Shown: positions 4,627 through 28,125, counted from the first letter of the stretch. The stretch is 32,000 nt of DNA from Nostoc punctiforme PCC 73102 (GCF_000020025.1 NC_010628.1:4140001-4172000); one strand, 5' to 3'. Numbers and translations are program-made. Notes: a model not told the origin generated them from the sequence alone.

Positions 4627-7563
4627 TCAATTTAAAGCTGTGTAGTCGCCATAAAGATTAAATCCTGCCCATAAGAAAAGGCTATCAGTATTTACATTGC
4701 AGTTAGGCAGACAGTTATTTAGGCAATCTAACTGAGTCCGATGCAAAGCTTCATCTCGTGGGAATTTATCTAAATAGTTGTAAAAACGGGTCATAAAAGA
4801 TACTGCGATTTTATCGTCTACCTTCCAAAGACAACCAAGAATGCTTTGAGTTCCAGACCGCCAGAGTGTTTCTGGTAAGCTGATAATCCAGCGACCAGGG
4901 AGGATAAAGTGATCTGCTGACCAACAGGAAGAGAGGGTTGCATGGCGCAAATTCGTTAAGTTCATTTCTGATAATTCTCTGAGGCTGAGAATCTCTTGTT
5001 CTTTATAATCAGAGATAAATACCAGTCCTGACTGGTCTGGTTGATTTAACTCAAAAGTGCCATGACAAGCAATATGAAGTAAGGTTACTTGAGATAAATT
5101 TTCAACAACAGTACTTTTAGAACTATTTACAAAAGAAAAGCGATGAATATGATTGCGATCTAGCCAGTCTTCTACCTGTTTTAGTTCTGGTTTAACTCCT
5201 TTTAGGAATGAAAATTGCTTGTTACCGTTAGACACGCCTACTACTAACGCTTTTTGTTTGGAAATAATTGAATTAGAAGGCGATCGCCTACCTTTGGACT
5301 CGTAAGCTATAGAAATGGCATAATGCTCAATTAAATACTTTTCTTTGTAGCGTATGGCGGCAAACGGAAAGCCATGCAAAATATCATCAGGTACAATTGT
5401 CAATGCCCGAATGTCTTTGGGTAAACCTTCTAGCAGCTTGGGAAATGCTAGCATTTCTGCAAGAGTTTTAGCTACTTCCTGCCCCACATTTGCTACCTCT
5501 GCCATCTCTTCTTCATATTCGCCCTGCCAATTCACATTCATATCTCGATGATAATTAATATCACGGTTGCTATCAATACTGTTGATTGGTTGGTCATAGA
5601 TATCTCGACCATTGTTAATATTCTTGATAAGTTTGTACCAGTGTTGTACCTGATTACGCACTTCCAAACGAGTAGTAAGAATAACATGAAAATCAAATAA
5701 AAATCGCCCTGTTTTCACAACTAAAACACGATCTGGCAGAATCAAAAATGAAAGAGTAATTCTGTCTTTTGGGTGAGTCAACAGCCGTAGCCACAATGAT
5801 GCAGGAGGTAAAAATGGAACTTTTATTCTGTCGCCTTTAATTGTACGTTTGGCTAATACATCCTTGTATCTGTCGATATGTTCCACTAAAGCATTCAGTT
5901 GTTGTATTAGCTGCAAGCGTTGCCAAAGAAAGAGCCAAAAAGCTCCCGTACTAACTTTTAGTTGCAAACGTTGCAACTGATTAATTTGTGCAGCAATGTA
6001 TTCCTCATCTGCTGTCCATTTATTCAACAGATAAAATACCTGGTCTTCTGGCGCAAGGGATGAGGTAATTTGTTCTAGTAAATAATTTGTTGATGCTGTT
6101 AAAGCTTCTATTTCCGGGAGTGGATAATTTAATCTAGTGCGACACCAAACTAATATCCTCTGTACCTGCCAAAGTTCTGGTCTTAAACCTATGTTCTGTA
6201 ATTGAGGATGAATTTCCTCCAAAATCTGATGTGCTTGATAAATTTTGGTCAAGTCACTGTTCTCTGTGCCTTCATAGTAAGCAAAAGTTCCTTCCAATAC
6301 CCGTATTTGTATTTTGATCAGGACCGAATCAGTACAATTGAATACCTTTTTTATGTGCTGGAGTAAATCGCCCGCAGTTTTCAGATTGAGGTTGCTCAAC
6401 TGCCATTGAAAGGCTAATGCGCGGTCTTCAAACCAAGTTAAATAATTGGAAGATTGAGTTGATAAGTCTAGTCTTGCTTCTACTTCTGCTACAGCTTGTT
6501 TATTATTTATTTTTTTATTCATTCCAAATACTGAGAGTTCCACAGGACTATTAACCACAAGGGAACGACTACGGGCATAGCATAGTTGCAATAATAAGTC
6601 TGCCCTTGCTGCTAAAGCTGCATCATCAATAGTAGAGGCATCGCTTTGGGTGTCCATTAAATAACTCTGAGCAGCACTGGTTTGGTTGAGAAAAATTAAG
6701 ATATGGGCAAGACTGAGGTTTGAACGCAACACCGCGCGTTGTGAACGAAGTTGACAGCATCTTTCTTGAACTTGTCGGAATTGTTTTAAACTAGTACCTA
6801 AATTTCCCAAAAGCAGATTGAGTTTACCAGATAGTTCCAACCAATGGATAAAATGTTCTGGATGCTGGGGTTGATTGAGTTGGCTTTCTAAATCGGAGAG
6901 ATAAGTCTGTGCATCCTCAAAATGTCCCTTTTCCTGGAGGACAGAGGCGATCGCCAACTTTAGTGGTAGTATAGTTTGCTGTGCTAAAGAAGATACTTTC
7001 TCTCCCTCAGCATGAAATAAACCCCGTTGCAAAGCAACAAGAGCCTCTCCGTATTGTCCCAAAGCAGCTAGCAATCGCCCCATCGCTAGGTATAATTCAG
7101 CAAATAAAACAGTCCGGTCTTCTGAGTCGGTATCATGCCAAAAACAACCCGCCTCCCACCGTAATAATCCTGGTAACACAAATTGAATATTATTAATGTC
7201 CCCAATGCGTGGAGCCATTTCTTGCAGTAAGTCTTGTGCTTGATCTAAAGTTCCTCTATCTATGCATAGTTGAATACGTCTTAGACAAGTATAATCAGCT
7301 AAACATTCATTCTTTGACTCCTTATATAAATCAACAGCTCCACAAAGCAAGTCATCAGCCGCTTGGAATTCACCCAATAAACCAGCTAAGTCTGCCAAGG
7401 ACTGGATAACTTTCAAATCTGCATCAACCAACCGGGAATATAAAAGGCGATGAGTAAAAATTTTGCATAAATCATCGTAAGCCCCTAGTAAATTGCCTTG
7501 AAGCCATTTTGTTTCGGCTAATTCAAAAGCAGTGTTGAGTTCAACAAAGGTATCGTATGGCAA
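4627..7563 (-). CDS. TPR-repeat / CHAT-domain (caspase-fold) protease, 978 aa
   Basis: The C-terminal ~300 aa has a CHAT-type His and Cys dyad context: VTLLHIACHGTFELNQPDQSGLVF and RHATLSSCWSADH. The N-terminal ~400 aa is helical-repeat/TPR-like (e.g. GRLLAALGQYGEALVALQRGL, LQEKGHFEDAQTYLSDL). No signal peptide. The ORF starts with TTG just after an in-frame stop. Confidence 0.8.
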   Translation of the reverse strand: MPYDTFVELNTAFELAETKWLQGNLLGAYDDLCKIFTHRLLYSRLVDADLKVIQSLADLAGLLGEFQAADDLLCGAVDLYKESKNECLADYTCLRRIQLCIDRGTLDQAQDLLQEMAPRIGDINNIQFVLPGLLRWEAGCFWHDTDSEDRTVLFAELYLAMGRLLAALGQYGEALVALQRGLFHAEGEKVSSLAQQTILPLKLAIASVLQEKGHFEDAQTYLSDLESQLNQPQHPEHFIHWLELSGKLNLLLGNLGTSLKQFRQVQERCCQLRSQRAVLRSNLSLAHILIFLNQTSAAQSYLMDTQSDASTIDDAALAARADLLLQLCYARSRSLVVNSPVELSVFGMNKKINNKQAVAEVEARLDLSTQSSNYLTWFEDRALAFQWQLSNLNLKTAGDLLQHIKKVFNCTDSVLIKIQIRVLEGTFAYYEGTENSDLTKIYQAHQILEEIHPQLQNIGLRPELWQVQRILVWCRTRLNYPLPEIEALTASTNYLLEQITSSLAPEDQVFYLLNKWTADEEYIAAQINQLQRLQLKVSTGAFWLFLWQRLQLIQQLNALVEHIDRYKDVLAKRTIKGDRIKVPFLPPASLWLRLLTHPKDRITLSFLILPDRVLVVKTGRFLFDFHVILTTRLEVRNQVQHWYKLIKNINNGRDIYDQPINSIDSNRDINYHRDMNVNWQGEYEEEMAEVANVGQEVAKTLAEMLAFPKLLEGLPKDIRALTIVPDDILHGFPFAAIRYKEKYLIEHYAISIAYESKGRRSPSNSIISKQKALVVGVSNGNKQFSFLKGVKPELKQVEDWLDRNHIHRFSFVNSSKSTVVENLSQVTLLHIACHGTFELNQPDQSGLVFISDYKEQEILSLRELSEMNLTNLRHATLSSCWSADHFILPGRWIISLPETLWRSGTQSILGCLWKVDDKIAVSFMTRFYNYLDKFPRDEALHRTQLDCLNNCLPNCNVNTDSLFLWAGFNLYGDYTALN

Positions 7564-7703: not shown

Positions 7704-10700
7704 TCAATTTTTTTCTGATGTGGTCACAACATAAACAGGTTTTTCTAGAGGACATTTGTTTGTATTCTGATTTTTATCTGATTCATCTTTTTCCTGGCAT
7801 CCATTGTTAGTAACAAAGCGTTGGGGATAATTTTGAAATTGGAATCTTAAGGAATCTCCAATGTTAGAAGCTGTAGTTTTAGTGGAAGGATTACTAGATA
7901 CGCTCACATCTCCCAACCCACTATGACGGATTTTAACTCTGCCTATTTCTCCGGGTTTGAGTTTATAGAATCTGGCTCCTGAACCAAAAGGAACACTTTG
8001 TTCAATCGACTGTTTAAATTGTAAATTGTTTAAACCAGGAGAATCTTGCACATAAATAAATTCTGTGTTGTTCTCTATGACTTTGAAGTTGCGATTATTA
8101 ATTTCATCAAAGAAATTTTGCTTAAACAGTTTCGCTCCTTCAGGAGTAATTCTTTCTACTTTTAGTCTACCTTCATACACATTCACCGCTGCTTTACGCA
8201 ATATCAGGTTCGGTTCTGAACCATGCAATTTGATTGATTCGTTAATTGATTTGGCAGCTCTAGTGTAATCCCCAGCTTTCAGTTCTCCATCAATTTTTTT
8301 GATTCGGAATTGTAAGTCTAGCTTCTGGCTTATAACATACTTAACTGGCTCTGCGGCGAGCTTCTGGGCTTCTTTGCGGTAATTATACGAACTTTTATAA
8401 TTTGCTCCTTTACCAGAAAGTTGTTGAAAACCCTGTGTTTGTTGTGAAACCTGCGCTTCATTTAAAGATTCAAAATTAAAATTACGGGCACCATCCTCTG
8501 GTTCAGCTACTGACATTATCCGTTTTGAAGGTGGTTTTGCACCACCTCCACTACCATCTGCTAAAGGCTGTTCACTAAATTTTAGCCATTTATTATTGGA
8601 CTTAGAAAGTTGAACAAAATAATCATTAGGTTGGGACGGAGAATACCTAACAAACACAACATCATCCATTTCCCTCAGAGCATTGAGAACACTCACTTTT
8701 TTTGGATTAAGGCGTGAAGTTCCTACGCTAAGGCGCGAAGCTAGGGAATATCCAGCATCTATATCTCGACTTTCAAAACCTACCTTAAAACCATTTGCCG
8801 TCTTGGAGATGTTCAGATTACCAAATTCAGTATCGCCGATGGCATTTTCTAGCTTTAGTCCATCGGGTATCTGCGTTACTTTGCTGCTAAATGGCTGATT
8901 TGTTAGTTCAACATTTGGACTGCGTAGTTTTGCTTCCGGTTTAGGTTCTACTATAGTTTCGCTAACAGTTTTACTTAGAGGTCTTACTCTGTATTTAGTA
9001 CCATCTAAAGTTTTAAATTCGAGTTTACCTCTTTGGAATTTTACAGACTTGTAGTCAATGTTAGACCTGCCGAGATTGCCTATTTTACTATCTTTAGGTA
9101 AAGAGATACGACCTTCAAAGTTTTTTCCGCCAGCCAGAGAAACCCCTCCATAAAGAGATGGATAGGGCTTCCCGTACTTCTTATCAATGTTTTCTGACTC
9201 TAAAAATTTCAATTTCTCTGTTTTTCTACCCTTATAGTTGTAGCCCTCAGAGAGAAATGTAATTGCGTCCCATTTTTTAAATTTCAAGCGTTCCCCTTGA
9301 GTTCCAACCCAATCTGGGAACCAGTTGTCTCGTTTAACTTTTACTGCTTGTAAAAAGCTCAAAGGATTGCTTTGTTCATACTGAAGGGAGAGTTCGTTTT
9401 GTTGGTGCTGATTGAGCCAATTAATTACTAAACTCCACTTCATAATTTGATTAAGCCGTTCATATTGTGGCTCATAGCGAGCAACTTCTTTATAGTGGTT
9501 GTTCCACCAGTTCAGAAAGGCAGCGGTATCTGGAGGCGCATTTGTTTCCTTGTTTGATTGAGGGCGGTCAGAAGAAGCAGCTTTGATCTGTGTGGCATTA
9601 GGAGCAAAAATAATATCCCTATTTTCATTTGCTACTTGAAATCCCTTGTCGTCTGGTTCAAGCCAAAGCCGAACATAGTTTGATTGTTTAAGTTCTGATT
9701 TATAAATTGGTGAAACAGCGATTCTGGTCTCTGGGTTAAAGCCTTCAATGTCAGTTTCTAGAGTAGCTTTTTGAAAGTTGAATTCCCAGATTTTCATCAA
9801 TAAGTCGGTATAGAACAGGGTCATTCCGACTTCCGTTCCTTGTAAACCCTCTTTTTTATCTTGCAAATTACCATTATATCGAGCTATCTGGAAACCATTT
9901 TTTTGTTGTGCGTTTAACAAATCATAAATTTCTTTCTTCTTGCTAGAAATTATTTCCTTCTTTTTCCAAGGTATTTCTTGTTCAAGATACTTTTCCCATT
10001 CGCTCTCCAACTTTTTTTGCTCGTGGTCTATGGCAATAATTTTTGCATGTATTTCTTCAGGAGATAAGCCAGATTCAAGTGCTTGCTGTATTTCTTTTTG
10101 AGATTGTTCTTTTGACTGCTTAATGCTCTGTTGACTTGCTTTATACTTTTTATCTTTATATATATTTAATTCCTTTTCAATTTCTGCTGCAAGTTTTTCT
10201 TTGCTAAATGCTTGATTTACAAGTTCTTCTGAACTCAAAAAATTTTCCAATTTAGCAATTAAATTGAAATAAGATTTTTTGTCTTGACGTAATAAACCCT
10301 GCTTTGCTTCTTGAATATCTTGGTCACTAATTATGAGTTTACCATCTAGTTTGAGTTTTTGGAGTAAAGGTTTTGCCTTCTCTAAAGCTTGTGCAATACG
10401 AGGATAGTCAAATTCCCAATCTAGAGAAAAGAGACTACCATTGATATTATTAAAATCTGACTGCCAAAGTGCTGCAATATCTTCTACGCGCAGACCTTGA
10501 TGTTTACGCTTATCTTTATCTTTATAAATCTTACGACCGCCCACATTCAAACTGGAACCATTAACTTGAGCAAAGGTAATATCATCAACCTGATTAAGGA
10601 AACTTTGCAGGTCATTCTGGCTGTTGATGGTGGTTTCAAAGTATCCGTAAGCACTACTAAAGATTTGTTCGCCGTTTATCGGCTCTTTTCTAGAAATAAC

Positions 10701-11231
10701 AGATGACTGCTTGTCAGGAGCAATTTCGTACTCAAATACCTCAATGATTTTAGGCTTTTCTCCTTGATCTTTGCGGTGACGATCAGCAATATGGGCAAGG
10801 TCATCCATACGCTGTTCTTTGGAAGCAGTGTTAGGCACTAGGGCAACTATTTTCCCATCACCGACATAGCGAGAGCGAGTGCTACCATACTCAAAATTGG
10901 CAACAGGACTTATAAAGTCATAGCGCACTGCTGGGAGGTCGTAGACACCCTGACTTATTTTTTCGGTGGAAAGCCCTTTGCCTGAAAGAGCAGTCATTAG
11001 TAACCAATCTCTTAATTGATCATCTTTTTGGCGTTTCGTCAACTTATAAAAGCCCTCATTCGGCTCAAAATTGACCGTCTGAGGTCGATTCAGGGGAAAG
11101 TTTTTGTCGGTTATGACTTCTATCGGTTGTACTACAGCTTGGGAAGCGCTGGTTTGGGCGTACACCATCCCCAAAGCTACAGGAGATGCAACAAGAACAG
11201 TGATACTCAACAAATCAATGATTTTTCTCAT
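7704..11231 (-). CDS. Large secreted protein of unknown function, 1175 aa
   Basis: The N-terminus MRKIIDLLSITVLVASPVALGMVYAQTSA looks like a Sec signal peptide. A central K/E/Q-rich coiled-coil-like stretch follows (...KQSKEQSQKEIQQALESGLSPEEIHAKIIAIDHEQKKLESEWEKYLEQE...). A strong RBS (AAGGAGGA) sits in the 19-nt spacer after the upstream gene's stop. I recognise no family. Confidence 0.75.
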   Translation of the reverse strand: MRKIIDLLSITVLVASPVALGMVYAQTSASQAVVQPIEVITDKNFPLNRPQTVNFEPNEGFYKLTKRQKDDQLRDWLLMTALSGKGLSTEKISQGVYDLPAVRYDFISPVANFEYGSTRSRYVGDGKIVALVPNTASKEQRMDDLAHIADRHRKDQGEKPKIIEVFEYEIAPDKQSSVISRKEPINGEQIFSSAYGYFETTINSQNDLQSFLNQVDDITFAQVNGSSLNVGGRKIYKDKDKRKHQGLRVEDIAALWQSDFNNINGSLFSLDWEFDYPRIAQALEKAKPLLQKLKLDGKLIISDQDIQEAKQGLLRQDKKSYFNLIAKLENFLSSEELVNQAFSKEKLAAEIEKELNIYKDKKYKASQQSIKQSKEQSQKEIQQALESGLSPEEIHAKIIAIDHEQKKLESEWEKYLEQEIPWKKKEIISSKKKEIYDLLNAQQKNGFQIARYNGNLQDKKEGLQGTEVGMTLFYTDLLMKIWEFNFQKATLETDIEGFNPETRIAVSPIYKSELKQSNYVRLWLEPDDKGFQVANENRDIIFAPNATQIKAASSDRPQSNKETNAPPDTAAFLNWWNNHYKEVARYEPQYERLNQIMKWSLVINWLNQHQQNELSLQYEQSNPLSFLQAVKVKRDNWFPDWVGTQGERLKFKKWDAITFLSEGYNYKGRKTEKLKFLESENIDKKYGKPYPSLYGGVSLAGGKNFEGRISLPKDSKIGNLGRSNIDYKSVKFQRGKLEFKTLDGTKYRVRPLSKTVSETIVEPKPEAKLRSPNVELTNQPFSSKVTQIPDGLKLENAIGDTEFGNLNISKTANGFKVGFESRDIDAGYSLASRLSVGTSRLNPKKVSVLNALREMDDVVFVRYSPSQPNDYFVQLSKSNNKWLKFSEQPLADGSGGGAKPPSKRIMSVAEPEDGARNFNFESLNEAQVSQQTQGFQQLSGKGANYKSSYNYRKEAQKLAAEPVKYVISQKLDLQFRIKKIDGELKAGDYTRAAKSINESIKLHGSEPNLILRKAAVNVYEGRLKVERITPEGAKLFKQNFFDEINNRNFKVIENNTEFIYVQDSPGLNNLQFKQSIEQSVPFGSGARFYKLKPGEIGRVKIRHSGLGDVSVSSNPSTKTTASNIGDSLRFQFQNYPQRFVTNNGCQEKDESDKNQNTNKCPLEKPVYVVTTSEKN

Positions 11232-11250
11232 GACTGATTCCTCCTTGCGT

Positions 11251-13155
11251 TTATGGTTTTTGTAATTGGCGATAGAGTTCTAAATAGTCCTCATTATCTT
11301 TTTTGAGTTGCTCCCCTGGTTGTCCAGCAACATATCGCACCAAGGATTCTTCATAGAGTTCCAGCACTCGTGACATCCGTTCATCTTTGCCAAGGATAGG
11401 TGCGTTATTAAAAAATTCTTTAGATGCTTTTAGCACTGCTTCATCATTCTGAACTTGCTTCGCCATCAGAATCATGTCATAAGCCTTTTGTCGTACTGCA
11501 AGCGTCGTCTGTTCTCGCATGACGATATAACCAGTCACAACTATCAATACACTTGCAACCATCGCTTGTAGCTTGATGCGCTTGTCTTGAGCACTGAAAA
11601 GCCACGGTAACAAAGGTTCTGTGCTGAGTCGAGGTTTTATAGATGCAGGTGTGAGGATAGGAGATGATTCTGAGTGTCCTGTAGGGGGTGTTACCAAGAC
11701 GCGATGTCTGGTGACAAACCCTTCCCCTCTGGTTTCATCTTCAAACAAACTATTTTCTAGATAGCCGCAGATAGGTGCAAAATCTAGTTCTGCCAAGTCT
11801 GGACTACTATCAACTACTACTTTCCAAACACTTGGTACATCTGCTTTTGTCTGAGGTGGATGTTGTAATACACTGTTAAGTGCCTCCCATAACTGGACTG
11901 CGATTTTGGTCGATTTGCTGGTAGATTTGATTGGCTTTGTTTTGCTATTAGGGGACTCCATCCAACCTTCACGAGGTTCTGATAGCCCAATGCTGTACCA
12001 AAGTTGAATTGCTTCTGCAATATAAAACACCCTTGTTGTTTCCTTGGCTTCATCTGAATCAATGTATGCATTCATCCATGCAAAACCTTTGTTGGCTCCT
12101 ATAAGCAGGGGATATCCATCCCAAGCGGATGGTACACCAGATTCCATCTCGTCTTGCAATCTGTTTTTCAAGTCCAGCAGTTCATTACGTGCTTTGTAAG
12201 CTTTTGCCAGATTGGGATTATAGGTAATTGCTTTTTGGACAGAGATGAAAGCATTAAACAATTGATGGCTACGTACCAAACTCACTGAATGCAAGTGATA
12301 TAAACTAGCCAAAAGTTGAAAAATTGTTAAGTTATAAGGATACTTTTTTAAAAATTTCCTTAACTCCCTAATTCCAGGTTGCAAATTCTTGGCGTTTTGG
12401 GCATACTGGTCTTTGGTTTCTGCATCCCAACACTTTGACAAAGTTTTTAAGTAGTAAATCTCTACTAGTTCACCTTGAAACTCAATATTATTCGGTAACC
12501 ATTTCAGCCGTTGCTCACAGCAATTAATCGCTTTGTGCCATTTTTTAGCTTCTTTATACACAGTAATTCGTGTCTGCCAAGCTTCTCCTAATAAATTTTT
12601 TACTTCTTGAGCAGATACAGGAGATAATTTCAATAGCTGCTGAATATAGTCGATATGAACAAATGCACGCTCTTTCCAAGACAGTTTTCTAGACTTTAAT
12701 ATCAATCCGTTGTAGAAAGCGCAGTGAGTGTTAATAAATAATTCATTCATTAAGTGCTGACGCAGTTTTACAGGATCGTTCATTATCTGAACACCAGGCT
12801 TATTGGCTACAATTAACGTAATTGTCTGCCATAAATCTGGCTTATTTAGTAAAGCCTTTAATTCAATTTGCATCTGATTCCAGAAAAAATCAGCCCTTTG
12901 CCACTTGGCAGCAATTTCTGCTTCTATTGCTAGTTTATGCTGAAGTAATAAATGCCCTAATTGACCTTTTAAATCTAACCCCAATTCAGTAAATTTCTGC
13001 CAAGTAGCGAAATCTTGGTTGGCAAGCTGTAACAGATTTTTCCCAGCTTGTTGGTCAGCAGTTAATTCTGTTTCCTCGGAACTCAGGTTATAAAGATTTG
13101 CTGAGATAACAGGGAATACTCGCTCTTGAGGACGACATAAAAGTGCTATCATCAT
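11251..13155 (-). CDS. Helical-repeat protein with a single C-proximal transmembrane helix, 634 aa, unknown function
   Basis: Long ORF with TPR-like helical segments (e.g. FISVQKAITYNPNLAKAYKARNELLDLKNRL). One hydrophobic segment, LQAMVASVLIVVTGYIVM, is preceded by basic residues (QDKRIK) and followed by a ~90-aa tail. The stop is 19 nt before the next gene's ATG, so they are probably co-translated. Confidence 0.7.
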   Translation of the reverse strand: MMIALLCRPQERVFPVISANLYNLSSEETELTADQQAGKNLLQLANQDFATWQKFTELGLDLKGQLGHLLLQHKLAIEAEIAAKWQRADFFWNQMQIELKALLNKPDLWQTITLIVANKPGVQIMNDPVKLRQHLMNELFINTHCAFYNGLILKSRKLSWKERAFVHIDYIQQLLKLSPVSAQEVKNLLGEAWQTRITVYKEAKKWHKAINCCEQRLKWLPNNIEFQGELVEIYYLKTLSKCWDAETKDQYAQNAKNLQPGIRELRKFLKKYPYNLTIFQLLASLYHLHSVSLVRSHQLFNAFISVQKAITYNPNLAKAYKARNELLDLKNRLQDEMESGVPSAWDGYPLLIGANKGFAWMNAYIDSDEAKETTRVFYIAEAIQLWYSIGLSEPREGWMESPNSKTKPIKSTSKSTKIAVQLWEALNSVLQHPPQTKADVPSVWKVVVDSSPDLAELDFAPICGYLENSLFEDETRGEGFVTRHRVLVTPPTGHSESSPILTPASIKPRLSTEPLLPWLFSAQDKRIKLQAMVASVLIVVTGYIVMREQTTLAVRQKAYDMILMAKQVQNDEAVLKASKEFFNNAPILGKDERMSRVLELYEESLVRYVAGQPGEQLKKDNEDYLELYRQLQKP

Positions 13156-13410
13156 AAAAAACTCTGGTAGATGATTATGTGTTTGCTATCAAAAATCTAA
13201 ATTTGAAATAATAATTTTTTCCCAATCGACTTTGTAAGTCAATATATTAGCTAATACCAAAAATCAATTATTAGTGCAATACAGTAAAGTGCAATTTTAC
13301 AAGTGGCACAATCTTAAGTAAACTTATTACAGCGCAATTTCAAGTTGATGGAGTACAGAATTTAGGTCTGCTAGCCAGACATAAAAGCTGTTTAACTCCT
13401 GAATTTTTCT

Positions 13411-15729
13411 CTATGTAAGATCATTATCATATGTAACTGGATTTAAATTTTTATTAAGATCGGTTTTGGATTTTTCTAACAAGGCAGAAAAATTATAATA
13501 GGATGTTTTTTGCTTATCTGATTTATCTGACTGCGATTTTTGCCAGATTATCCAGCCCAAAAATATCGCTATTAAAGGCAATACCAAAAACAATCCTATT
13601 CTCAAATGTCTAAATAACCTGTGTAAATTTTTCTGTTTAACTTGTTTATCCGTATCATCATTAGGTGTTGCAGTGATAATTAATATTTGACTAGTCATCC
13701 ATTCATCCAAAACTTCAGGCTTTTGAGGTTCATCTTTATAAGGAACTATCGCACGAGATTGAATTTTTCGTATCAGATTATTGAAGCTATTACTTTTCGT
13801 AACATATACTTGTGTATTATCATTAGAAGGATGGTGATTAGACTTTTCAATATTACCTTGTATCAGCAAATCAGCATCAAATTCACTAATACTAACAATT
13901 AGTTTAAGGATATCTTTATACTCTGTATACTCTGTTACTCCCTGATGCCCAAAATTTTGAGGTATAACCATAGAGATATCTCTTCCTTCTAAAGCCCAAA
14001 TTTCTTGGCCTGGTTGCAACAATATTCCAGTCCTAACTCCTGCAAAAGGAATTCCTGTAACAGCAAAAAGTTCGGTTAAATTCAGCAAAACGCAGTAAAG
14101 AGCATTTTCACTTTTATTAGTTAGTTTTATCCTAATTATTGGAGGTTCTAACTTTCCATTATTGGCTTGATATTTTAAATAAATCGGGTAATCGTGAATT
14201 TCTGATTCCTGTTGATAAACTTGCATTTGTACCGCATCACTTGAAATTAAACTGTTTGCAGGACTTGTAATGGTAGCTATATTTATCCATCGTGCAATAT
14301 GTTCTAAAGCATGAATTGCTTGTAATGCACTTTCTGAGGTAAATCCTGGAATTGGGGATATTAATTGGCGCTGATCGCTAACGCGTATAATGAAATATTT
14401 ATCACCTAAAGCTTGCAAGCAAACATCTGCTTCGTTGAAATTATCTACTTCACCAATATAAAGTGAATGGCTTTCACCAAAACTAGCTGTTTGAATAGCT
14501 TGACGTGCATAGTTAACTCCAGATTCTTCTCCTTTCAAATAAACTTTCAAAAAAGATGCAGGTAAACTAGTAATCACAGCTTTGTAAGTTAACTCTGGAT
14601 CTAATATTTCTCTTTCTCCAGAGATATTAATTCGGCTCAATTGTGGTAAAACTTCTGTAATTTCTGCTACAGCGATCGCATCTTGTAGCTGGCTAATATC
14701 TTCTACATTTATGGGAAAGATAGCTAACCTTGTTTTTTCATTTCCGTTACTATAAATAATACCATGAATCGCACCTGCATCAATACTCCAACCATTGAGT
14801 CCATCATAAATAATGGTAAAGTATATTTGTCGTTGACCAACTATACCCCCTAAAAAAGGCTGGTCTAAGTAATTGGAATTTGTCGCTTCAATTTGCGGCG
14901 ATTGTTTGGGATATAAACTGCGAACTAAGGCATTAGTTCGCTTAAATAAATCACGATAATTTAAACTGCCATTTCGTTGTAAGCTGTCCATTAAAAAGTA
15001 GGAAAATACTCCTCTTTTTTGGCTACGATGTTCTTTTGCCTCTTCATTATCTCGGCAAGCGGCTAAAAGTATGTATTCCCCCTGTGGGATAAAAAACTTA
15101 TTTGATTCGTTGTCATTCAAATCAGATTTAGAAAAGAAACTATTGATTTCTTTCTCTGACAATATAAAGCTAGAAAGTGGTCTTTCTCTCAATTCAGTAT
15201 TGACTGAACGTATACCGGTATATTGCAAATTAAATTTATCTGAAGAAACATCATCATTTTCGTCTCGTGTCCCTCCACCAGAATGACAACAATCCAAAAT
15301 TATAACAATATGTGGGTGATTTTGAGAAACCTCTGCAATTAATTTCGCAATTTCTTTATCAGCTAAATCCCAAATATCATCTGTCCGACTATCCCAACAA
15401 ACCAAAGTTTCATTCAAATGGTCTGGTTCTAAATTCCAAAATTCCTGTCCAGCGCGTTCTTGAGAACCATGACCGCTGAAGTAAAATAACGCAACATCAT
15501 TACTTTTCGCCTGACAGAGATGTTCCCGAAAACCGTCAATAATCGCTTGACGAGTCGCTTCATGATTTATGAGTTTCTTGATAAATAATTTATCCTCATT
15601 ATTCGTTAAGTGTTTTCTTAAAAACTCATCAATCACTGTGATATCGTTAACGCATCCTTTTAAAGGAGGAATTGTATGAGATTGATAATTATTAATTCCA
15701 ACAGTTAAAGCATAAACACTCCGACTCAT
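13411..15729 (-). CDS. Membrane-anchored orthocaspase (peptidase C14, caspase/metacaspase-like), 772 aa
   Basis: N-terminal caspase p20-like domain: YALTVGINNY..., catalytic His context VALFYFSGHGSQ (His codon 15469-15471), catalytic Cys context HIVIILDCCHSGGGTRD. An unassigned middle region of about 450 aa follows. A C-terminal TM helix (IGLFLVLPLIAIFLGWIIW) follows basic residues. Confidence 0.85.
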   Translation of the reverse strand: MSRSVYALTVGINNYQSHTIPPLKGCVNDITVIDEFLRKHLTNNEDKLFIKKLINHEATRQAIIDGFREHLCQAKSNDVALFYFSGHGSQERAGQEFWNLEPDHLNETLVCWDSRTDDIWDLADKEIAKLIAEVSQNHPHIVIILDCCHSGGGTRDENDDVSSDKFNLQYTGIRSVNTELRERPLSSFILSEKEINSFFSKSDLNDNESNKFFIPQGEYILLAACRDNEEAKEHRSQKRGVFSYFLMDSLQRNGSLNYRDLFKRTNALVRSLYPKQSPQIEATNSNYLDQPFLGGIVGQRQIYFTIIYDGLNGWSIDAGAIHGIIYSNGNEKTRLAIFPINVEDISQLQDAIAVAEITEVLPQLSRINISGEREILDPELTYKAVITSLPASFLKVYLKGEESGVNYARQAIQTASFGESHSLYIGEVDNFNEADVCLQALGDKYFIIRVSDQRQLISPIPGFTSESALQAIHALEHIARWINIATITSPANSLISSDAVQMQVYQQESEIHDYPIYLKYQANNGKLEPPIIRIKLTNKSENALYCVLLNLTELFAVTGIPFAGVRTGILLQPGQEIWALEGRDISMVIPQNFGHQGVTEYTEYKDILKLIVSISEFDADLLIQGNIEKSNHHPSNDNTQVYVTKSNSFNNLIRKIQSRAIVPYKDEPQKPEVLDEWMTSQILIITATPNDDTDKQVKQKNLHRLFRHLRIGLFLVLPLIAIFLGWIIWQKSQSDKSDKQKTSYYNFSALLEKSKTDLNKNLNPVTYDNDLT

Positions 15730-15833
15730 TGTTTTATCCCTTATCAGTGTTTGTCAAAGTTGCAAAAAACCAGCATCCTCTACATTTATATGCAATACTT
15801 CAAGATTTAGAAGTACAACACTCGATAAACTAA

Positions 15834-16820
15834 CTAAATAATAAATTTTGTGATGACGCTATCTCCTCTGAAACTAATTTTTAAACTAAATTTATCTCCA
15901 ACATTTCCTTTAAATCTAAGTTGCAACCAGTTACTTGCCTTTGCTTGCTTTTCAAGCTGACGAATAGGGTTATCTTTCTCATCTAGTAATGTCATCTTTA
16001 TTCCATCTAATAAGAATATTGATTCACTAGCTGGATAAAGACGTAAGATAATTTCAATCTCATCTGGACTTAATCGTGTCTGGCGGAGAATTAAAAGCAC
16101 TGGTTCAGAAAGATGCATGAGATGAATAATTCTTGCACCACCTACTTCTTCTTTGTCAGTAACATTAACAGGAGAAATATCTTTGGGAACAGCTAATACA
16201 TTAGGAATATCTTTGGCAATAGCTAATTCATATTCCCATCCACTGTCTAATAATCCTTTAAACCATTTGCTTAGTTTAACTATGCTTTCGTTAAGTTGAT
16301 TCCTTGCAATTTCAGAAATATCTGGATTAGAAGGATCATAATTTTCAATTTTTTGTAATTTTTGTAGGTAAATTAAAAAATCTTGCAGGGAGCCTAATTT
16401 GCTTAAAGCCAATTTTTCGTTAGAAACTGATTCTACAAAACCTACTATTTTTGCTTGTCTATCAAGCTCATCAATTTCTACTACCATATAACCAATACGC
16501 TCTGATAAAATTTCTGCTGGAATCTCACAAAAATCTTCTCTTGGAAGTACAGGACGACACTCCAATAAACCTTTATCTTTGATAAATATGCTGGCAGTAT
16601 TCATTAAAGATAGTACAACACTATCCAAACCATAACTTTTGCTAAATTCTGTTTCAATTTCCATGCACTGACAGAAAAACTCAACTGCCAATAAAGCCAA
16701 AGTATTGAGATAAACCTCACGAGTTTTTTGTTCGTTGCGCTGTTGCTGGCTCAATTTATTAGCAATATTAATCATTTCCCGGCTGATAGGTATTGTAAAA
16801 GCCAATTGATTAGAATTCAT
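15834..16820 (-). CDS. DUF1822-family protein (cyanobacterial, unknown function), 328 aa
   Basis: The N-terminal pattern ...TREVYLNTLALLAVEFFCQCMEIETEFSKSYGLDSVVLSLMNTASIFIKDKGLLECRPVLP... matches my recollection of the conserved DUF1822 core (YLNTLA..., ...LECRPVL). Size about 300 aa. RBS AGGAGA lies upstream of the ATG. Needs HMM confirmation. Confidence 0.6.
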   Translation of the reverse strand: MNSNQLAFTIPISREMINIANKLSQQQRNEQKTREVYLNTLALLAVEFFCQCMEIETEFSKSYGLDSVVLSLMNTASIFIKDKGLLECRPVLPREDFCEIPAEILSERIGYMVVEIDELDRQAKIVGFVESVSNEKLALSKLGSLQDFLIYLQKLQKIENYDPSNPDISEIARNQLNESIVKLSKWFKGLLDSGWEYELAIAKDIPNVLAVPKDISPVNVTDKEEVGGARIIHLMHLSEPVLLILRQTRLSPDEIEIILRLYPASESIFLLDGIKMTLLDEKDNPIRQLEKQAKASNWLQLRFKGNVGDKFSLKISFRGDSVITKFII

Positions 16821-16868
16821 TGCTTTTTCTCCTGATAAGCTCTTCTACATTTAATTCACACATACAAT

Positions 16869-17648
16869 TTAGTCAGATGAATCTGAAGGATAACTGTTCT
16901 TCTTTTTTAGATGGACTTCTAAATTGAGATATTTTCTAAAATAAGGAGCAAATTTTTCACAACATCTTCTATAAAATGTGAAAACAGGCCCGTGGGTTTT
17001 CCCTAATTTTAATTCTTCAACTATCTCTTTCCACGACTTCCCCTCTTCCCCTCTTTTAAGTAAAATAATTTGAAAGCTAGCTTTCGGGTTGCTATTGAAC
17101 AGTGTATTTGTGAATAATCCTTCTGGATCTTCTTTAATAAAAGCTATTAGGTTTTCAGATGGAAGAGAATTATTAACTTCTGGAGGGCAATAAACGTCGA
17201 GAATATTTATCTCAGATTCATCACTATCTTTATATATAGATGTAATTTTCCCATTCCACTTTATCCAATTAAAATTATTTATTTTTCTTTTGAAGAATAG
17301 AAAAATAAACCATCTCATGAAAGGATTTTTTCTGGGTTCATTGTTATCTATTTTTTTTACATTAATCCTTTCTGGGTCAAATTTTTCTATATTTTTACAA
17401 ACATACAACAAGGTATTTTGGAGCGTTTCTTCATAAAGATATGATAAATCGATGCTTTTTGGTTTGGGTAACTCAATTTTTATCTGCTCCATTAATACAC
17501 TCATTAGTTCTGTAAGTAAAATCTGTTTTTCTAATAATGCTTGCTGTCTCACTTCATAACTGTGCGAGTCATCCTTAGCTCGTATTGCTGCTGTTTTAGC
17601 TCTCACAGCTAGTTCTTCTAAAGAAGGCTGTGGTCGATTTTGAACCAT
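16869..17648 (-). CDS. Sigma-70-like / HTH protein (putative partner of DUF1822), 259 aa
   Basis: A region-2-like segment (LQNTLLYVCKNIEKFDPER...NPFMRWFIFLF) and a C-terminal region-4-like HTH segment (KSWKEIVEELKLGKTHGPVFTFYRRCCEKFAPYFRKYL). It lies 48 nt upstream of the DUF1822 gene on the same strand. The assignment is weak and made by eye. Confidence 0.4.
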   Translation of the reverse strand: MVQNRPQPSLEELAVRAKTAAIRAKDDSHSYEVRQQALLEKQILLTELMSVLMEQIKIELPKPKSIDLSYLYEETLQNTLLYVCKNIEKFDPERINVKKIDNNEPRKNPFMRWFIFLFFKRKINNFNWIKWNGKITSIYKDSDESEINILDVYCPPEVNNSLPSENLIAFIKEDPEGLFTNTLFNSNPKASFQIILLKRGEEGKSWKEIVEELKLGKTHGPVFTFYRRCCEKFAPYFRKYLNLEVHLKKKNSYPSDSSD

Positions 17649-17949
17649 CGCAAAATACCCCTTATTTGTGCATTTGCTATTTATTTTTAGTTATTCATTT
17701 AACTTTGATTGACAAAACTTTAACTATAAGTGTCTTCAAGACAATGACTATCCAAGCTAATTACTCCTCGCTTTTTTAGATTCCTATATCAGTCTCCAAA
17801 GATAGAGTGTAGTTTTATGCATATTGGAAAAAAATCTGAATATTTTTTCAGGTTGGAAAGACTCTTACCTTCTCACACCACATCCAAGCCACTTTTTCAT
17901 TCAAAATGAAAAGCTTAAGGAAGCAGTTGGCGAGGCTATTTGCTGATAT

Positions 17950-18608: not shown

Positions 18609-20927
18609 ATGTTGCCACATAGTTTTCTTACTCAAATGGCTTACGAGCATGAATTATCCCCAGAACAGCAGCAAGTTTTCTTGATGCGAATGGCGGATGA
18701 TTTAAGCTACGAACAAATAGCCACCCAATTGAGTACATCAGCAGATGCTTGTTTGAAACGTATGGGTCAGGTGTACAGGAAGTTCAATATTAGTGGCGTT
18801 AGTCGTGGTAAAGAAAATAAACTCAGATTTCTCCTGGCTAACAAGTTGGAACAGTCGCAACGGTTAGAGTCAAATGCTGAAGAGCCTTCAGATTATACCC
18901 AACCTGCTCATGTACCCGATTTAGAAACTGAACCCAATCTGGTAAATATCAGCCAAAAATACCTTATTTATCAAAACTTGCCAGCAAGAGAACATACAGC
19001 CTTTGTTGGTCGCGCCCAAGAAATCATGCGGCTAATGGAACTTTTGGATTTTCAGCACACCGCTCATTTAATCAGTGTGGATGGCATTGGTGGTGTAGGT
19101 AAAACTACTTTAGTCGTAGAAGTAGCTTATCGTTGCTTGGAAGTGAGCAATAACGAACATTTCGCTCCCAGCCTTCCCACCTTTGAAGCCATTATCTTTA
19201 CTTCCGCCAAACAGAATCATCTAACCTCTATTGGTATCTTGCCTCGATTAACTAGAGAACGTACTCTGTGGGATATTTGCAGGGAAATTGCTCGTGTCCT
19301 AGATCTCAGTGAAATCATTAATTTACCTTTAGAAGAACAATTCCAGCCAATTCGAGAGAAATTATCTCAAACAAAAACCTTATTAATTGTTGATAATTTA
19401 GAAACCATTGAAGACCAACAGGAAGTTCTGTCCTTTCTGTACGATTTACCACCAACGGTGAAAATTATTATCACTACTCGTGAACAAGCTTTGTTTGTAC
19501 CCATTCGCCTGGGTTGTCTACCTAAAGAAGATGCTTTGCGCCTCATCCAACATGAAGCCAAAGAAAAAAGTATAACTTTGACTACGAAAGAATCTCAGCA
19601 ACTTTTTGAGGGAGTAAGTGGAATACCTGCTGCAATTATTTATGCCGTTGGTCAGATGGCGGCGGGTTATTTACTGGAGGATGTGTTGGCACAAATCAAA
19701 GAACCTAACGGTGATGTTGCCCGTTTTTGTTTTGCAGGCTCGGTAATTCCCCTAAGAGGCACGCCCCCTTACTATTTGCTGATGGCAGTTTCACTAGGAG
19801 TAGAACCTATAACCAGAGAAGCTGCTGGCAGTATTGCTTTTGAGCAAGCTGACCCAATTGTTACAGCCCAAGGATTGGCGAAATTGCAGCAACTTTCCTT
19901 GGTTTATCAGCACCAAGGGCGCTACAACCTGCTTGAATTGACCCGCGAGTATTCTGCTGCTGAGTTAGCTGCGAATAGTGAATTGGCTCAAAAGTTACAA
20001 CAAAGATGGGTCAATTGGTATATCAAATTTTCGGAGGCTTACGGAGGCACGAATTGGAAGGAGTGGCATCTCGGCTATAGTTATTTAGAAGCTGAATGGG
20101 AAAATATCAGAGCCGTACTCGAATGGTGTATTAGTCAAGTAATGTACTGTGATGCGCGAACAATTTGGCAACAGATTAAGGGCTATATTCATGTGCGTGG
20201 ATACTGGGATGAACGTTTAGACTGGACAGCTTGGTTGATTGAAACTGCCAAACAAACTGGAGATTGGACTTTTGCAGTTGAGGTAATGAGCGATCGCGCT
20301 GGCACTTTGATTAGGATGCGCCAAGAGAGCCAGCTAAAAGAAGCAGAGATTTTGTTACAAGAAGCTTGGAATTTGCGCCACCATCAAAGTATAATCTTGC
20401 AGCTAGAGATAGCTACAAACATGGCTATTTTATATATTAATCAACAACAGTTTAAGCAAGCTCAGGAGTGGCTAACAGAAGAGGAAAAACTGTTAAAACA
20501 AGCATCGCTACCAGAGTTGAAAATAAAGGAACAACAAGTTCATATTATTTATTATCAAGGACAGATACATTTTCAATCTGGAGATTACCAGCAGGCTGAA
20601 AACGTTTTCCAGCAAGCATTAGCTGAAGCTCAACAAGCTGGATGGCAAAGAGCAGTCGTTGCTATTCAAAATTGGTTAGCAGATGTGGCTCTGAAATTAG
20701 GAAATTTAGAAGAAGCACGACGATTATTGGAATTAAGCTTTCCAATCGCAGAGAGACATAAAGATAAACGCTCTATTGCTTACCATAAGGCATCATTTGC
20801 TAAGCTGGAAAAACTATCAGGGAATTTACCTCAAGCTAAACGCTTGGCAGAAGAAGCATCGGATGGTTTTGAAAGTCTGAAGATGCTAACAGAAGCCAAA
20901 GAAATGCGTACTTTATTCTCCAGTTAA
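18609..20927 (+). CDS. STAND NTPase: N-terminal LuxR/sigma-region-4-like HTH + NB-ARC-type P-loop + C-terminal TPR array, 772 aa
   Basis: HTH-like segment: LSPEQQQVFLMRMADDLSYEQIATQLSTSADACLKRMGQVYRKF. Walker A ISVDGIGGVGKTTLV, Walker B KTLLIVDNLE, and a GLPL-like motif VSGIPAAIIY. The C-terminal third is TPR-like (GDYQQAENVFQQALAEAQQAG, GNLEEARRLLELSFPIAE). The start may instead be the second ATG at 18636 (MAYEHEL...). Confidence 0.8.
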   Translation: MLPHSFLTQMAYEHELSPEQQQVFLMRMADDLSYEQIATQLSTSADACLKRMGQVYRKFNISGVSRGKENKLRFLLANKLEQSQRLESNAEEPSDYTQPAHVPDLETEPNLVNISQKYLIYQNLPAREHTAFVGRAQEIMRLMELLDFQHTAHLISVDGIGGVGKTTLVVEVAYRCLEVSNNEHFAPSLPTFEAIIFTSAKQNHLTSIGILPRLTRERTLWDICREIARVLDLSEIINLPLEEQFQPIREKLSQTKTLLIVDNLETIEDQQEVLSFLYDLPPTVKIIITTREQALFVPIRLGCLPKEDALRLIQHEAKEKSITLTTKESQQLFEGVSGIPAAIIYAVGQMAAGYLLEDVLAQIKEPNGDVARFCFAGSVIPLRGTPPYYLLMAVSLGVEPITREAAGSIAFEQADPIVTAQGLAKLQQLSLVYQHQGRYNLLELTREYSAAELAANSELAQKLQQRWVNWYIKFSEAYGGTNWKEWHLGYSYLEAEWENIRAVLEWCISQVMYCDARTIWQQIKGYIHVRGYWDERLDWTAWLIETAKQTGDWTFAVEVMSDRAGTLIRMRQESQLKEAEILLQEAWNLRHHQSIILQLEIATNMAILYINQQQFKQAQEWLTEEEKLLKQASLPELKIKEQQVHIIYYQGQIHFQSGDYQQAENVFQQALAEAQQAGWQRAVVAIQNWLADVALKLGNLEEARRLLELSFPIAERHKDKRSIAYHKASFAKLEKLSGNLPQAKRLAEEASDGFESLKMLTEAKEMRTLFSS

Positions 20928-21951: not shown

Positions 21952-22305
21952 TTGGCAACTAAAATGTTTATGCAAGAAGAAATTATCTCGATTGTTACCG
22001 ATAATGTTCAATTTCCAGCAGAAACAAGGAATTGGGAAGCTCCATCTGAAGGTGCTACTAAGTACAAAGTAGAGATTAGCGCCGATAAGTTAGAGCAAGA
22101 AATGGGTCGGTTTTTACAAATAGTAAGTCGTTTATTTAAACGTGCAGAGATAGAAACTGAAAAAAAACCTGGAATACACCTTGATGAAATTGAGCTATCA
22201 GTAGAAATTAATGGCGAAGGTAAGGTTAGCTTAATTGGAAGTGGTGCAAAAGCTGGTGGTAAAGCAGCAATAACCCTAAAGTTTAAACGAACCGAATTAG
22301 AGTGA
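21952..22305 (+). CDS. Small trypco2-like (trypsin-co-occurring domain 2 / CU044_2847-like) protein, 117 aa
   Basis: The C-terminal pattern HLDEIELSVEINGEGKVSLIGSGAKAGGKAAITLKFKR resembles the family hallmark (...EVEFGVKLTAEAG...AK.GGEA.LKVKLTW). Small size, and located 139 nt upstream of a CHAT protease gene. The real start may be ATG 21964. Confidence 0.55.
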   Translation: MATKMFMQEEIISIVTDNVQFPAETRNWEAPSEGATKYKVEISADKLEQEMGRFLQIVSRLFKRAEIETEKKPGIHLDEIELSVEINGEGKVSLIGSGAKAGGKAAITLKFKRTELE

Positions 22306-22444
22306 AATAGCAAATTTAAAACTAGTACCGTAAGGCGGAAGTCAAAATTCAAAATGACTATAAGATAAGCCTTTTGTTGATTTTTAATTTGTTTTTTATT
22401 TCTGGCACGCTGTACTAGCTGGTGTAATAGTAGGGATATTTTGT

Positions 22445-27514: not shown

Positions 27515-28125
27515 GTGAGAAGAGTCGGGGGAGTAGGGGGAGATGGGGAGGTAGGGGGAGTGAGTAAATATTAGACAGAGAAGCAAATGGTTAAAGAACT
27601 GGTTAGAAAACACCAAGATTTAGAAATTTATAAGATGGCATTTGATATGGCGATGCAAATTTTTGAATTATCGAAAAAGTTTCCTGTGGAGGAAAGGTAT
27701 TCGCTTACCGATCAAATTCGTCGTTCAGACGCTCCTAACGTCGCTAACGCTTCGCTATCCCGTTCTGTGTGTGCGAATTTAGCTGAGGCATGGAGAAAGC
27801 GTCGATATGAGGCAGCATTCGTCGCAAAATTGAATGATTGTGAATCAGAAGCAGCCGAAACTCAAACCTGGATAGAGTTTAGTGTTAAATGTGGTTACTT
27901 GGATGTTGAGATTGGTCGAGAACTCTACGGAACCTATAACCAGATTTTGAGTGGATTAGTCAATATGATTAATCATTCGGAATCTTGGTTGATGAAGCAC
28001 TAAGAGACTTGCAAGTAAATAACCATTCCATCGCTTTTGAAGCTGGGGGAGAAAGAGCATTTCCTTCCACTACTCCCCCTACTCCCGCTACTTCCCCCAC
28101 TTCCCCGACTCTTCTCACTTCTCAC
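27515..28125. other. ~610-bp cassette: four-helix-bundle gene bounded by ~50-bp imperfect inverted repeats made of G-runs (G-quadruplex-type motifs on opposite strands)
   Basis: The upstream arm is GTGAGAAGAGTCGGGGGAGTAGGGGGAGATGGGGAGGTAGGGGGAGTGAG (27515-27564). The reverse complement of 28068-28118 is GTGAGAAGAGTCGGGGAAGTGGGGGAAGTAGCGGGAGTAGGGGGAGTAGTG. The first 16 nt are identical and overall identity is roughly four-fifths. Four G4-5 runs with 4-5-nt loops lie at 27527-27558. Confidence 0.7.
27587..28003 (+). CDS. Four-helix-bundle protein (23S rRNA intervening-sequence protein family; same fold family as DGR Avd), 138 aa
   Basis: HQDLEIYKMAFDMAMQIFELSKKFPVEERYSLTDQIRRS...SVCANLAEAWRKRRYEAAFVAKLNDCESEAAETQTWIEF matches the conserved core of this family as I recall it. 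Confidence 0.8.
   Translation: MVKELVRKHQDLEIYKMAFDMAMQIFELSKKFPVEERYSLTDQIRRSDAPNVANASLSRSVCANLAEAWRKRRYEAAFVAKLNDCESEAAETQTWIEFSVKCGYLDVEIGRELYGTYNQILSGLVNMINHSESWLMKH

Follow-up and report, generated by a model that had tools for sequence, protein, structure and literature searches.

From genome comparison, Kaur, Iyer, Burroughs & Aravind (eLife 2021, PMC8195603) described proteins composed of an N-terminal EACC2 region, a caspase domain and variable C-termini, as well as neighborhoods that combine a caspase, a sigma factor of the extracytoplasmic function (ECF) type and DUF1822, the last of which was labelled a tetratricopeptide repeat (TPR) protein; a stimulus was proposed to activate the caspase, with the ECF sigma factor as the output. 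In Craspase, the CHAT protease Csx29 (a TPR-CHAT protein, with gRAMP/Cas7-11) cleaves Csx30, which binds the sigma factor RpoE (PMC9825189). In the type III-B SAVED-CHAT system of Haliangium ochraceum, a C14 caspase (PCaspase) is activated by the CHAT protein and cleaves in vitro both PCc-sigma, a predicted sigma factor, and PCi (bioRxiv 10.1101/2023.06.23.546230), while the CalpL-CalpT-CalpS module consists of a SAVED-Lon protease, an anti-sigma factor and a sigma factor that is ECF-like (bioRxiv 10.1101/2024.05.08.593097). The subject of the present analysis is a 32,000-nucleotide stretch of the genome of Nostoc punctiforme PCC 73102 (GCF_000020025.1 NC_010628.1:4140001-4172000; the whole stretch is called the window below), in which genes for a sigma-like protein, a DUF1822 protein and a membrane-anchored orthocaspase lie in a row.

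These three genes form a genuine, conserved cassette, and its probable role is to link gene expression to proteolysis. The original prediction, made from the sequence of the window alone, described them as three co-directional minus-strand open reading frames (ORFs) separated by 48 nt (sigma-like/DUF1822) and 104 nt (DUF1822/caspase), and these coordinates were reproduced exactly (Table 1). No terminator-like sites were found between the three genes, and the start of the DUF1822 gene is preceded by AGGAG. To judge how general the arrangement is, one genome per species was scanned with a DUF1822 alignment, giving at least 585 confirmed loci, of which 80 were kept; all taxon-named loci among the latter come from cyanobacteria. 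The prediction had stated that DUF1822 genes often sit next to sigma-family genes, and the survey agrees: 72 loci extend far enough upstream to be assessed, and in 70 of them a sigma-like homologue detectable by BLAST lies upstream on the same strand, at a median distance of 46 nt. Chance adjacency of the two genes is ruled out by these synteny counts.

In almost every case a protease gene comes next after the sigma-like/DUF1822 pair, but the family of the protease changes. In 60 loci, DUF1822 is immediately followed by an ORF of 150 aa or more in the same direction; clustering and Pfam assign this downstream gene to a protease in 55 and to something unrelated in five. The most common type (36 loci) combines an N-terminal region of about 200 aa with CHAT, mostly followed by CHASE2 and sometimes by NACHT or a kinase; nine proteases are of the C14 type found in the window, nine carry two Trypsin_2 domains and TPRs, and one is a pentapeptide+CHAT protein. 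The original prediction had proposed counting the co-occurrence of DUF1822, sigma-like and peptidase C14 genes; in this survey the window is a minority variant, in which the usual protease, consisting of an N-terminal region and CHAT, is replaced by a C14 orthocaspase. Calothrix PCC 7103 encodes one cassette of each class (C14, CHAT and tandem trypsin+TPR; loci L013, L019 and L041). As the function of the downstream protease is conserved and its family is not (three types), the pattern fits a pair that is acted on by a protease. In two CHAT-class cassettes that were inspected (L089 9967-13177 and L090 9962-13093), a gene of about 770-790 aa downstream of DUF1822, encoding CHAT+CHASE2 in L090 and having no Pfam match on record in L089, is followed by a DUF928 gene, which takes the position that a 634-aa transmembrane (TM) protein occupies in the C14 clade.

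The three genes are also syntenic in related genomes, as had been proposed for checking: the triad is kept in orthologous loci of Calothrix PCC 6303, Aetokthonos and Trichormus NMC-1. There it lies within a larger block comprising a GRDP-like gene (about 180 aa), a divergent STAND gene with a sigma4-type helix-turn-helix (HTH), NB-ARC and TPR, the triad itself, and genes of about 640 and 1200 aa. Within the C14 clade, a homologue of the 1175-aa protein of the window is found downstream in 13/13 loci, and the 634-aa protein, or its C-terminal TM part only, in all loci but one. Because these two homologues recur across the clade, the conserved unit consists of five co-directional genes (7704-17648), not three, and a divergent STAND gene frequently lies beside it. 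The recurrence of the pair with a protease gene (55/60) in a conserved unit fits the idea of a transcription-factor/partner pair wired to a protease, though the unit is larger than had been predicted. Cassette decay is common. An ISL3 transposase interrupts the caspase gene of Calothrix PCC 6303 (L001 9828-13592), the caspase of L011 is truncated (479 aa), and in L016 a truncated DUF1822 gene is followed by an unrelated histidine kinase gene.

The 328-aa protein is a DUF1822 member, as predicted (PF08852 with E 3.9e-45; 155 bits in two stretches, above the Pfam gathering threshold of 25); PF08852 is likewise present in all 120 listed proteins of the 158 homologues found. An AlphaFold2 (AF2) model built from 35 sequences (overall predicted local distance difference test, pLDDT, of 76) divides it into an alpha+beta N-domain (pLDDT about 90) and an eight-strand beta-sandwich connected by a low-confidence linker. 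No TPR is visible in the model, and the protein is soluble, with no TM segment. With the C-domain, Foldseek yielded nothing beyond weak matches to Ig-like beta-sandwiches, and a profile search against PDB sequences gave nothing significant.

The linker of DUF1822 contains a conserved short motif that ends with a basic residue. In the form L-[AGST]-[FVILYW]-x0-2-[KR], at most 32 residues after a W-x8-W anchor, it occurs in 59 of 78 DUF1822 proteins, against 8.3% of shuffled segments, and the proteins lacking the strict motif mostly have near-variants. The window protein and its closest relatives (L006 and L007) carry two copies in tandem (LAIAKDIP / NV / LAVPKDISP); other DUF1822 proteins of the C14 clade have a single copy (e.g., LAVAKSISP), and the double motif is apparently a small tandem duplication. 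The form of the motif follows the protease class, namely LA[VI][AT][KR] with C14, LAFxFR with CHAT and LGLAFK with trypsin (8/9; the ninth is LGLSFK), a correlation that is confounded because the DUF1822 subfamilies co-diverge with the protease class. Trypsin-fold enzymes commonly cleave after basic residues. Such cleavage is also reported for orthocaspases (PMC6426788). As orthocaspases cut after basic residues and the linker is disordered, the motif is a reasonable candidate for a protease cleavage or docking site. One protein (P0124) considered as a sigma-DUF1822 fusion was rejected as such; it is a DUF1822 protein with a longer linker.

The 772-aa protein has the anatomy that had been proposed for it, with an N-terminal caspase dyad, a middle region without family match and a C-terminal TM helix. 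Its caspase domain matches Peptidase_C14 (PF00656, E 3e-25, 89.7 bits against a cut-off of 21.4), and the catalytic residues, His87 (within SGHG) and Cys148 (within DCCHSG), are kept in 10/10 caspase orthologues. The hydrophobic segment, kept in 9/10 orthologues, is followed by a tail of about 40 aa. The intervening region of about 410 aa shows 60-83% column identity and has no match in Pfam or among PDB sequences; its 121 homologues are nearly all proteins of about 670-720 aa with an N-terminal C14 domain, most of them cyanobacterial, with some from Acidobacteria, Chloroflexi and Actinobacteria. Three caspase paralogues that were examined lie in other contexts, with no sigma or DUF1822 genes. 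Because such relatives occur without the pair, the caspase family is an independent module, which the cassette has recruited. The protein also matches the candidate-defence caspase model of PADLOC (E 4.6e-40). It shows no BLAST similarity to the CHAT-class proteins, and as its caspase domain begins at residue 6, there is no N-terminal extension and hence no constant EACC2 region ahead of it. A permuted EACC2 within the middle region was also considered and rejected (hhalign against the N-terminal ~200 aa of the CHAT class, probability 0.2); this CHAT-class region is called 'EACC2' here by position and architecture alone.

We classify the 259-aa protein as a sigma-like protein of the ECF type that has diverged strongly and may still work with RNA polymerase. 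Segments like sigma-70 regions 2 and 4 had been read directly from its sequence. A direct comparison with Pfam/NCBIfam gives no family match even at E<=1, and PADLOC gives none; the assignment is recovered at the level of the family. All 17 homologues of the protein come from heterocystous cyanobacteria. Sigma70_r2 matches 6 of 16 orthologues (best 3.6e-6), and the two best PDB matches of the orthologue profile are ECF SigK and RpoE region 2 (E about 0.01). Of the 67 proteins whose genes immediately precede those for DUF1822, 26 match Sigma70_r4_2 and 14 match Sigma70_r2, and many match the generic HTH_23/GerE models. The seven best PDB matches of a profile of these 67 proteins are all sigma factors (six ECF and one sigma-H); its positions 72-219 align with residues 110-240 of Mycobacterium tuberculosis SigE, with region 2 followed by region 4, at E about 1e-3, so that the E-values of the two profiles span about 1e-3 to 1e-2. 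A region-4 HTH collinear with region 2 is present at this family level, and the window sequence is a full-length member of the alignment. Clustered at 50%, the family comprises 512 representatives.

The lack of a direct Pfam match is probably explained by an insertion of about 13 aa, INVKKIDNNEPRKN, which follows 'FDPER' in the sigma2 region of the window copy and its three closest relatives in the alignment. In the AF2 model (pLDDT 60), the linker between sigma2 and sigma4 (residues 123-173) is long and of low confidence, and Foldseek of this model against the PDB gave nothing significant. A comparison of the orthologue alignment with a hand-entered Escherichia coli RpoE sequence by hhalign was negative; this result is uninformative owing to the low effective number of sequences and the single-sequence template. 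A conserved basic motif, class-specific or family-wide, was looked for in the sigma-like linker, and none is family-wide. Fusion partners of sigma-like proteins (Macro+GUN4 in P0143, and others) revealed nothing on mechanism.

Table 1. Features of the window; residue ranges refer to the protein named in the row.
Feature	Position	Strand	Description
Five-gene conserved unit	7704-17648	(-)	Unit conserved in the C14 clade
259-aa ECF-sigma-like gene	16869..17648	(-)	ORF call
Sigma2-like region of 259-aa protein			About residues 36-127, followed by a variable linker
Sigma4-like HTH of 259-aa protein			About residues 190-240
328-aa DUF1822 gene	15834..16820	(-)	ORF call and PF08852 match
DUF1822 N-domain			Residues 5-155, alpha+beta (AF2)
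DUF1822 linker			Residues 159-222, low confidence (AF2)
DUF1822 C-domain			Residues 225-327, eight-strand beta-sandwich (AF2)
Duplicated linker motif of DUF1822	16173-16226	(-)	Residues 199-216, LAIAK-DIP-NV-LAVPK, then DISP (motif proper: residues 199-213, 16182..16226)
772-aa tail-anchored orthocaspase gene	13411..15729	(-)	ORF call and Peptidase_C14 match
Caspase domain	14878-15714	(-)	Residues 6-284
Caspase middle region	13630-14862	(-)	Residues 290-700
Caspase hydrophobic segment/TM	13534-13617	(-)	Residues 705-732
634-aa protein	11251..13155	(-)	Directly downstream of caspase; weak TPR-like signal, one TM at residues 527-547
1175-aa protein	7704..11231	(-)	N-terminal hydrophobic signal/anchor segment, no family match
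978-aa TPR+CHAT protein	4627..7563	(-)	CHAT E 3.4e-72; 140 nt after 1175-aa gene, co-directional
Conserved non-coding block	17779..17845	(-)	About 130-200 nt upstream of sigma-like start; candidate promoter or operator
772-aa STAND NTPase	18609..20927	(+)	Divergent; sigma4-type HTH at residues 15-48, NB-ARC and TPR; candidate sensor/regulator
Pepco-domain gene, then 699-aa CHAT	21952-24544	(+)	Pepco protein of 117 aa (PF24393, E 3.7e-28)
Mob_Pre relaxase with DUF3991	25421-26923		
23S rRNA IVP protein	27587-28003		
DDE_5 transposase	28700-30010		
Split DDE transposase	3180-4442		
HerA/FtsK-like ATPase	560-3115		

The analysis shows which genes make up the cassette, how their proteins are divided into domains, their synteny, a protease slot whose occupant can change and a linker motif specific to the protease class; from here on we infer the protein-protein contacts, the cleavage event and the output of the cassette. 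The reading we tentatively prefer, though we give it somewhat less than an even chance, is a protease-gated transcription switch in which DUF1822 holds the sigma-like factor and the membrane caspase cuts the linker to release it. DUF1822 would bind the sigma-like protein and keep it inactive. The receiver of the signal might be the non-catalytic region of the caspase, the neighboring HTH-NB-ARC-TPR STAND protein or an upstream CHAT protease, and the signal would lead to activation of the caspase at the membrane. Within the disordered inter-domain linker of DUF1822, the caspase would then cut after the Lys that is conserved in the LA[VI]xK motif, and the freed sigma-like factor would turn on a regulon, plausibly including the co-directional downstream genes for the 634-aa TM, 1175-aa exported and TPR-CHAT proteins. 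The near-obligate pairing (70/72), the dyad intact in 10/10 orthologues, the lack of an intergenic terminator and the three-class set of Calothrix PCC 7103 argue for such a switch, as do the two confidently modelled DUF1822 domains joined by a low-confidence linker of about 60 residues with its K/R-ending motif. It also draws support from experimental precedents for protease-gated release or cleavage of sigma factors (Csx29-Csx30-RpoE, CalpL-CalpT-CalpS and PCaspase-PCc-sigma), and from the caspase-gated output through ECF sigma factors that Kaur et al. proposed for related neighborhoods.

Several points weigh against this switch. The window sigma-like protein is very divergent, with no Pfam match, an insertion in sigma2, and Asn where the family profile aligned an Asp and an Arg of M. 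tuberculosis SigE (mapping by inspection); given this divergence, the AF2 pLDDT of 60 and the lack of a significant fold match, the protein may not bind RNA polymerase as a true sigma factor. The fold of DUF1822 is unlike known anti-sigma domains, with no significant PDB match by Foldseek or profile search. The phylogenetic confounding of the motif/protease-class correlation applies here as well, the loose motif is short, and the P1 specificity of CHAT proteases is not generally basic. Finally, the PCaspase precedent cleaves the sigma factor itself, not its partner (bioRxiv 10.1101/2023.06.23.546230). An extended form of the proposal, in which sigma-like/DUF1822 would be a general cyanobacterial protease-gated switch, a basic linker motif particular to each class would fit CHAT, C14 or tandem trypsin to its own DUF1822, and cleavage at that motif would release the sigma-like factor, appears rather doubtful.

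The PCaspase precedent suggests an alternative, which we regard as unlikely: the sigma-like protein would be the substrate of the caspase, as PCc-sigma is, DUF1822 would act as a PCi-like protease inhibitor or adaptor and not as an anti-sigma factor, and the 978-aa TPR-CHAT or the 699-aa CHAT protein might activate the C14 caspase in a cascade. The published C14 PCaspase does cleave PCc-sigma together with PCi on activation by CHAT (bioRxiv 10.1101/2023.06.23.546230), the window holds a C14 caspase and two CHAT proteins, and the sigma2-sigma4 linker is long and of low confidence. Yet the family-wide basic motif lies in the linker of DUF1822 and not in that of the sigma-like protein, neither Foldseek nor the profile search against the PDB finds a CI-2-like PCi match for DUF1822, and SAVED/CARF, cas and cyclase domains were found in none of the window ORFs scanned, a scan that included no dedicated CRISPR-array search. 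A different possibility is that the link is transcriptional only, as in the second option of the original prediction, in which caspase expression is under the control of the pair. The sigma-like and DUF1822 proteins, aided by the STAND protein or not, would then control expression of the caspase and the downstream genes, and the caspase would be a terminal membrane effector (in abortive infection or programmed cell death) that does not act on the pair. The co-directional, tightly spaced genes without a terminator, the conserved block upstream of the sigma-like gene, the caspase relatives that occur elsewhere without the pair and the match to the PADLOC candidate-defence model are all consistent with it, and frequent decay by insertion sequences and truncations is typical of conflict systems. 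It offers no explanation for the near-constant presence of a protease gene in particular, of three types, after the pair, nor for a DUF1822 linker motif whose form changes with the protease class; overall it seems somewhat unlikely.

The nature of the 259-aa protein bears on every one of these possibilities. It could be a sigma-derived HTH protein that serves in DNA binding or as a scaffold and not as a working sigma factor, so that the cassette would signal without redirecting RNA polymerase; this could be combined with any of the other explanations, and we consider it quite improbable. It would account for the missing Pfam/NCBIfam match, the modest E-values of the PDB profile matches, the clade insertion and the Asn residues noted above, and for the many family members that match generic HTH models; the negative hhalign comparison with RpoE points the same way, within the limits already given. 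It sits poorly with the fact that the seven best PDB matches are sigma factors without exception, with a SigE alignment that spans regions 2 and 4 in order, and with the matches to Sigma70_r2, which is not a DNA-binding HTH, in 14/67 proteins.

The genes around the cassette include further candidates for its regulation. The STAND gene lies beside the cassette in L001, L003, L005/L008, L006, L010 and L015 with 77-96% identity, compared with 53-93% for the sigma-like, DUF1822 and caspase proteins of the same loci, which indicates that the triad evolves faster than its STAND neighbor. The non-coding block upstream of the sigma-like gene aligns in 7/7 orthologous loci (it reads …ATATTCAGA…ATGCATAAAAC TACACTCTATCTTTGGAGACTGATATAGGAATC) and contains an imperfect inverted repeat, CTCTATC-N10-GATATAG, recognized by eye in the sequence. 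It has no Rfam match, and as it does not recur elsewhere along the window, it yielded no regulon motif. Profiles of the 634-aa and 1175-aa proteins found nothing useful among PDB sequences. The 978-aa TPR-CHAT protein may be a second protease of the system. Distant TPR-CHAT relatives are encoded a few kb downstream of several CHAT-class cassettes, in convergent orientation; the one in L090 (14731-18924), the one locus checked, adjoins a TPS-domain exoprotein. The presence of TPR-CHAT near the cassettes may point to a further module linked with them, or to proteases acting in a cascade.

The Pepco-domain gene and the following 699-aa CHAT gene constitute a separate caspase-fold conflict pair, which is also found beside the STAND gene in Trichormus NMC-1 (L005). 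With its TPR-CHAT gene, the Pepco and CHAT pair, the relaxase gene, IS fragments and the HerA/FtsK-like ATPase gene (Table 1), the window has the look of a mobile region or an island with many caspase-fold conflict genes; megablast found no match to it among PLSDB plasmids.

Filamentous cyanobacteria are rich in orthocaspases; to our knowledge, none of these has an established physiological substrate or pathway, and we know of no function assigned to DUF1822. If the extended form of the switch is true, a physiological substrate, DUF1822, would for the first time be defined for a cyanobacterial orthocaspase, and a function would be provided for DUF1822 and for more than 500 uncharacterized sigma-like proteins (50% clustering). 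The results also suggest that the same sigma/partner pair has been combined with three protease types, sometimes all in one genome; if so, these would be parallel and insulated pathways from protease to transcription. The locus and the cassette survey supply a cheaply testable hypothesis, in which a candidate substrate is named, a motif is proposed as scissile and transcription serves as the read-out. Their value lies in making the question testable, as the association and the idea are already published.

Compared with the classical arrangement of the RseA-DegS-RseP type, in which a sigma factor is held by a membrane anti-sigma factor and released by a membrane-located protease, the window system differs: its partner protein, DUF1822, is soluble and has no similarity to anti-sigma domains, and it is the protease that is anchored in the membrane. 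CalpL-CalpT-CalpS shares with the window the tripartite layout of protease, partner and ECF-like sigma factor, but CalpL is a Lon protease activated by cA4, and the module contains neither a caspase fold nor DUF1822. Craspase resembles the proposed switch in that a caspase-fold protease cuts the partner of an ECF-type sigma factor, giving proteolysis-gated transcription; unlike the window system, it is RNA-guided and not specific to cyanobacteria, its protease is CHAT and not C14, and Csx30 is unrelated to DUF1822. The PCaspase system likewise combines a C14 caspase, a sigma-like gene and CHAT protein(s), and PCaspase is encoded with a small partner protein. The two caspases are likened by their p20 domain; the window caspase, however, is membrane-anchored, its partner is DUF1822 instead of a CI-2-like inhibitor, the window has no kinase gene, and no CRISPR, SAVED or cyclase genes were seen in it.

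The closest relatives are the EACC2-caspase neighborhoods of Kaur et al., which, like the window, bring together in cyanobacteria an ECF-type sigma gene, DUF1822 and a caspase-fold protease; outside its catalytic domain this protease has a further region, often associated with the membrane, to which the 410-aa region and TM helix of the window caspase may correspond. The description by Kaur et al. fits the 36 CHAT-class loci of the present survey. The original prediction held that such a switch was undescribed for bacterial caspase-fold enzymes. This is contradicted by the literature, since both the caspase/ECF-sigma/DUF1822 neighborhoods and systems leading from protease to sigma factor have been published (PMC8195603, PMC9825189, bioRxiv 10.1101/2023.06.23.546230): the gene association, from genome comparison, and the general concept are already known. 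The window protease differs from those of Kaur et al. in being Peptidase_C14 and not CHAT, in lacking EACC2 and CHASE2, and in possessing a 410-aa region without family match and a single C-terminal TM helix; DUF1822 is modelled as an alpha+beta domain and a beta-sandwich instead of TPRs, and the window clade adds two conserved downstream genes. What is new is the presence of a C14 orthocaspase in the slot of the EACC2-CHAT protease, the modelled two-domain architecture of DUF1822 without TPR, and the basic linker motif that varies with the protease class.

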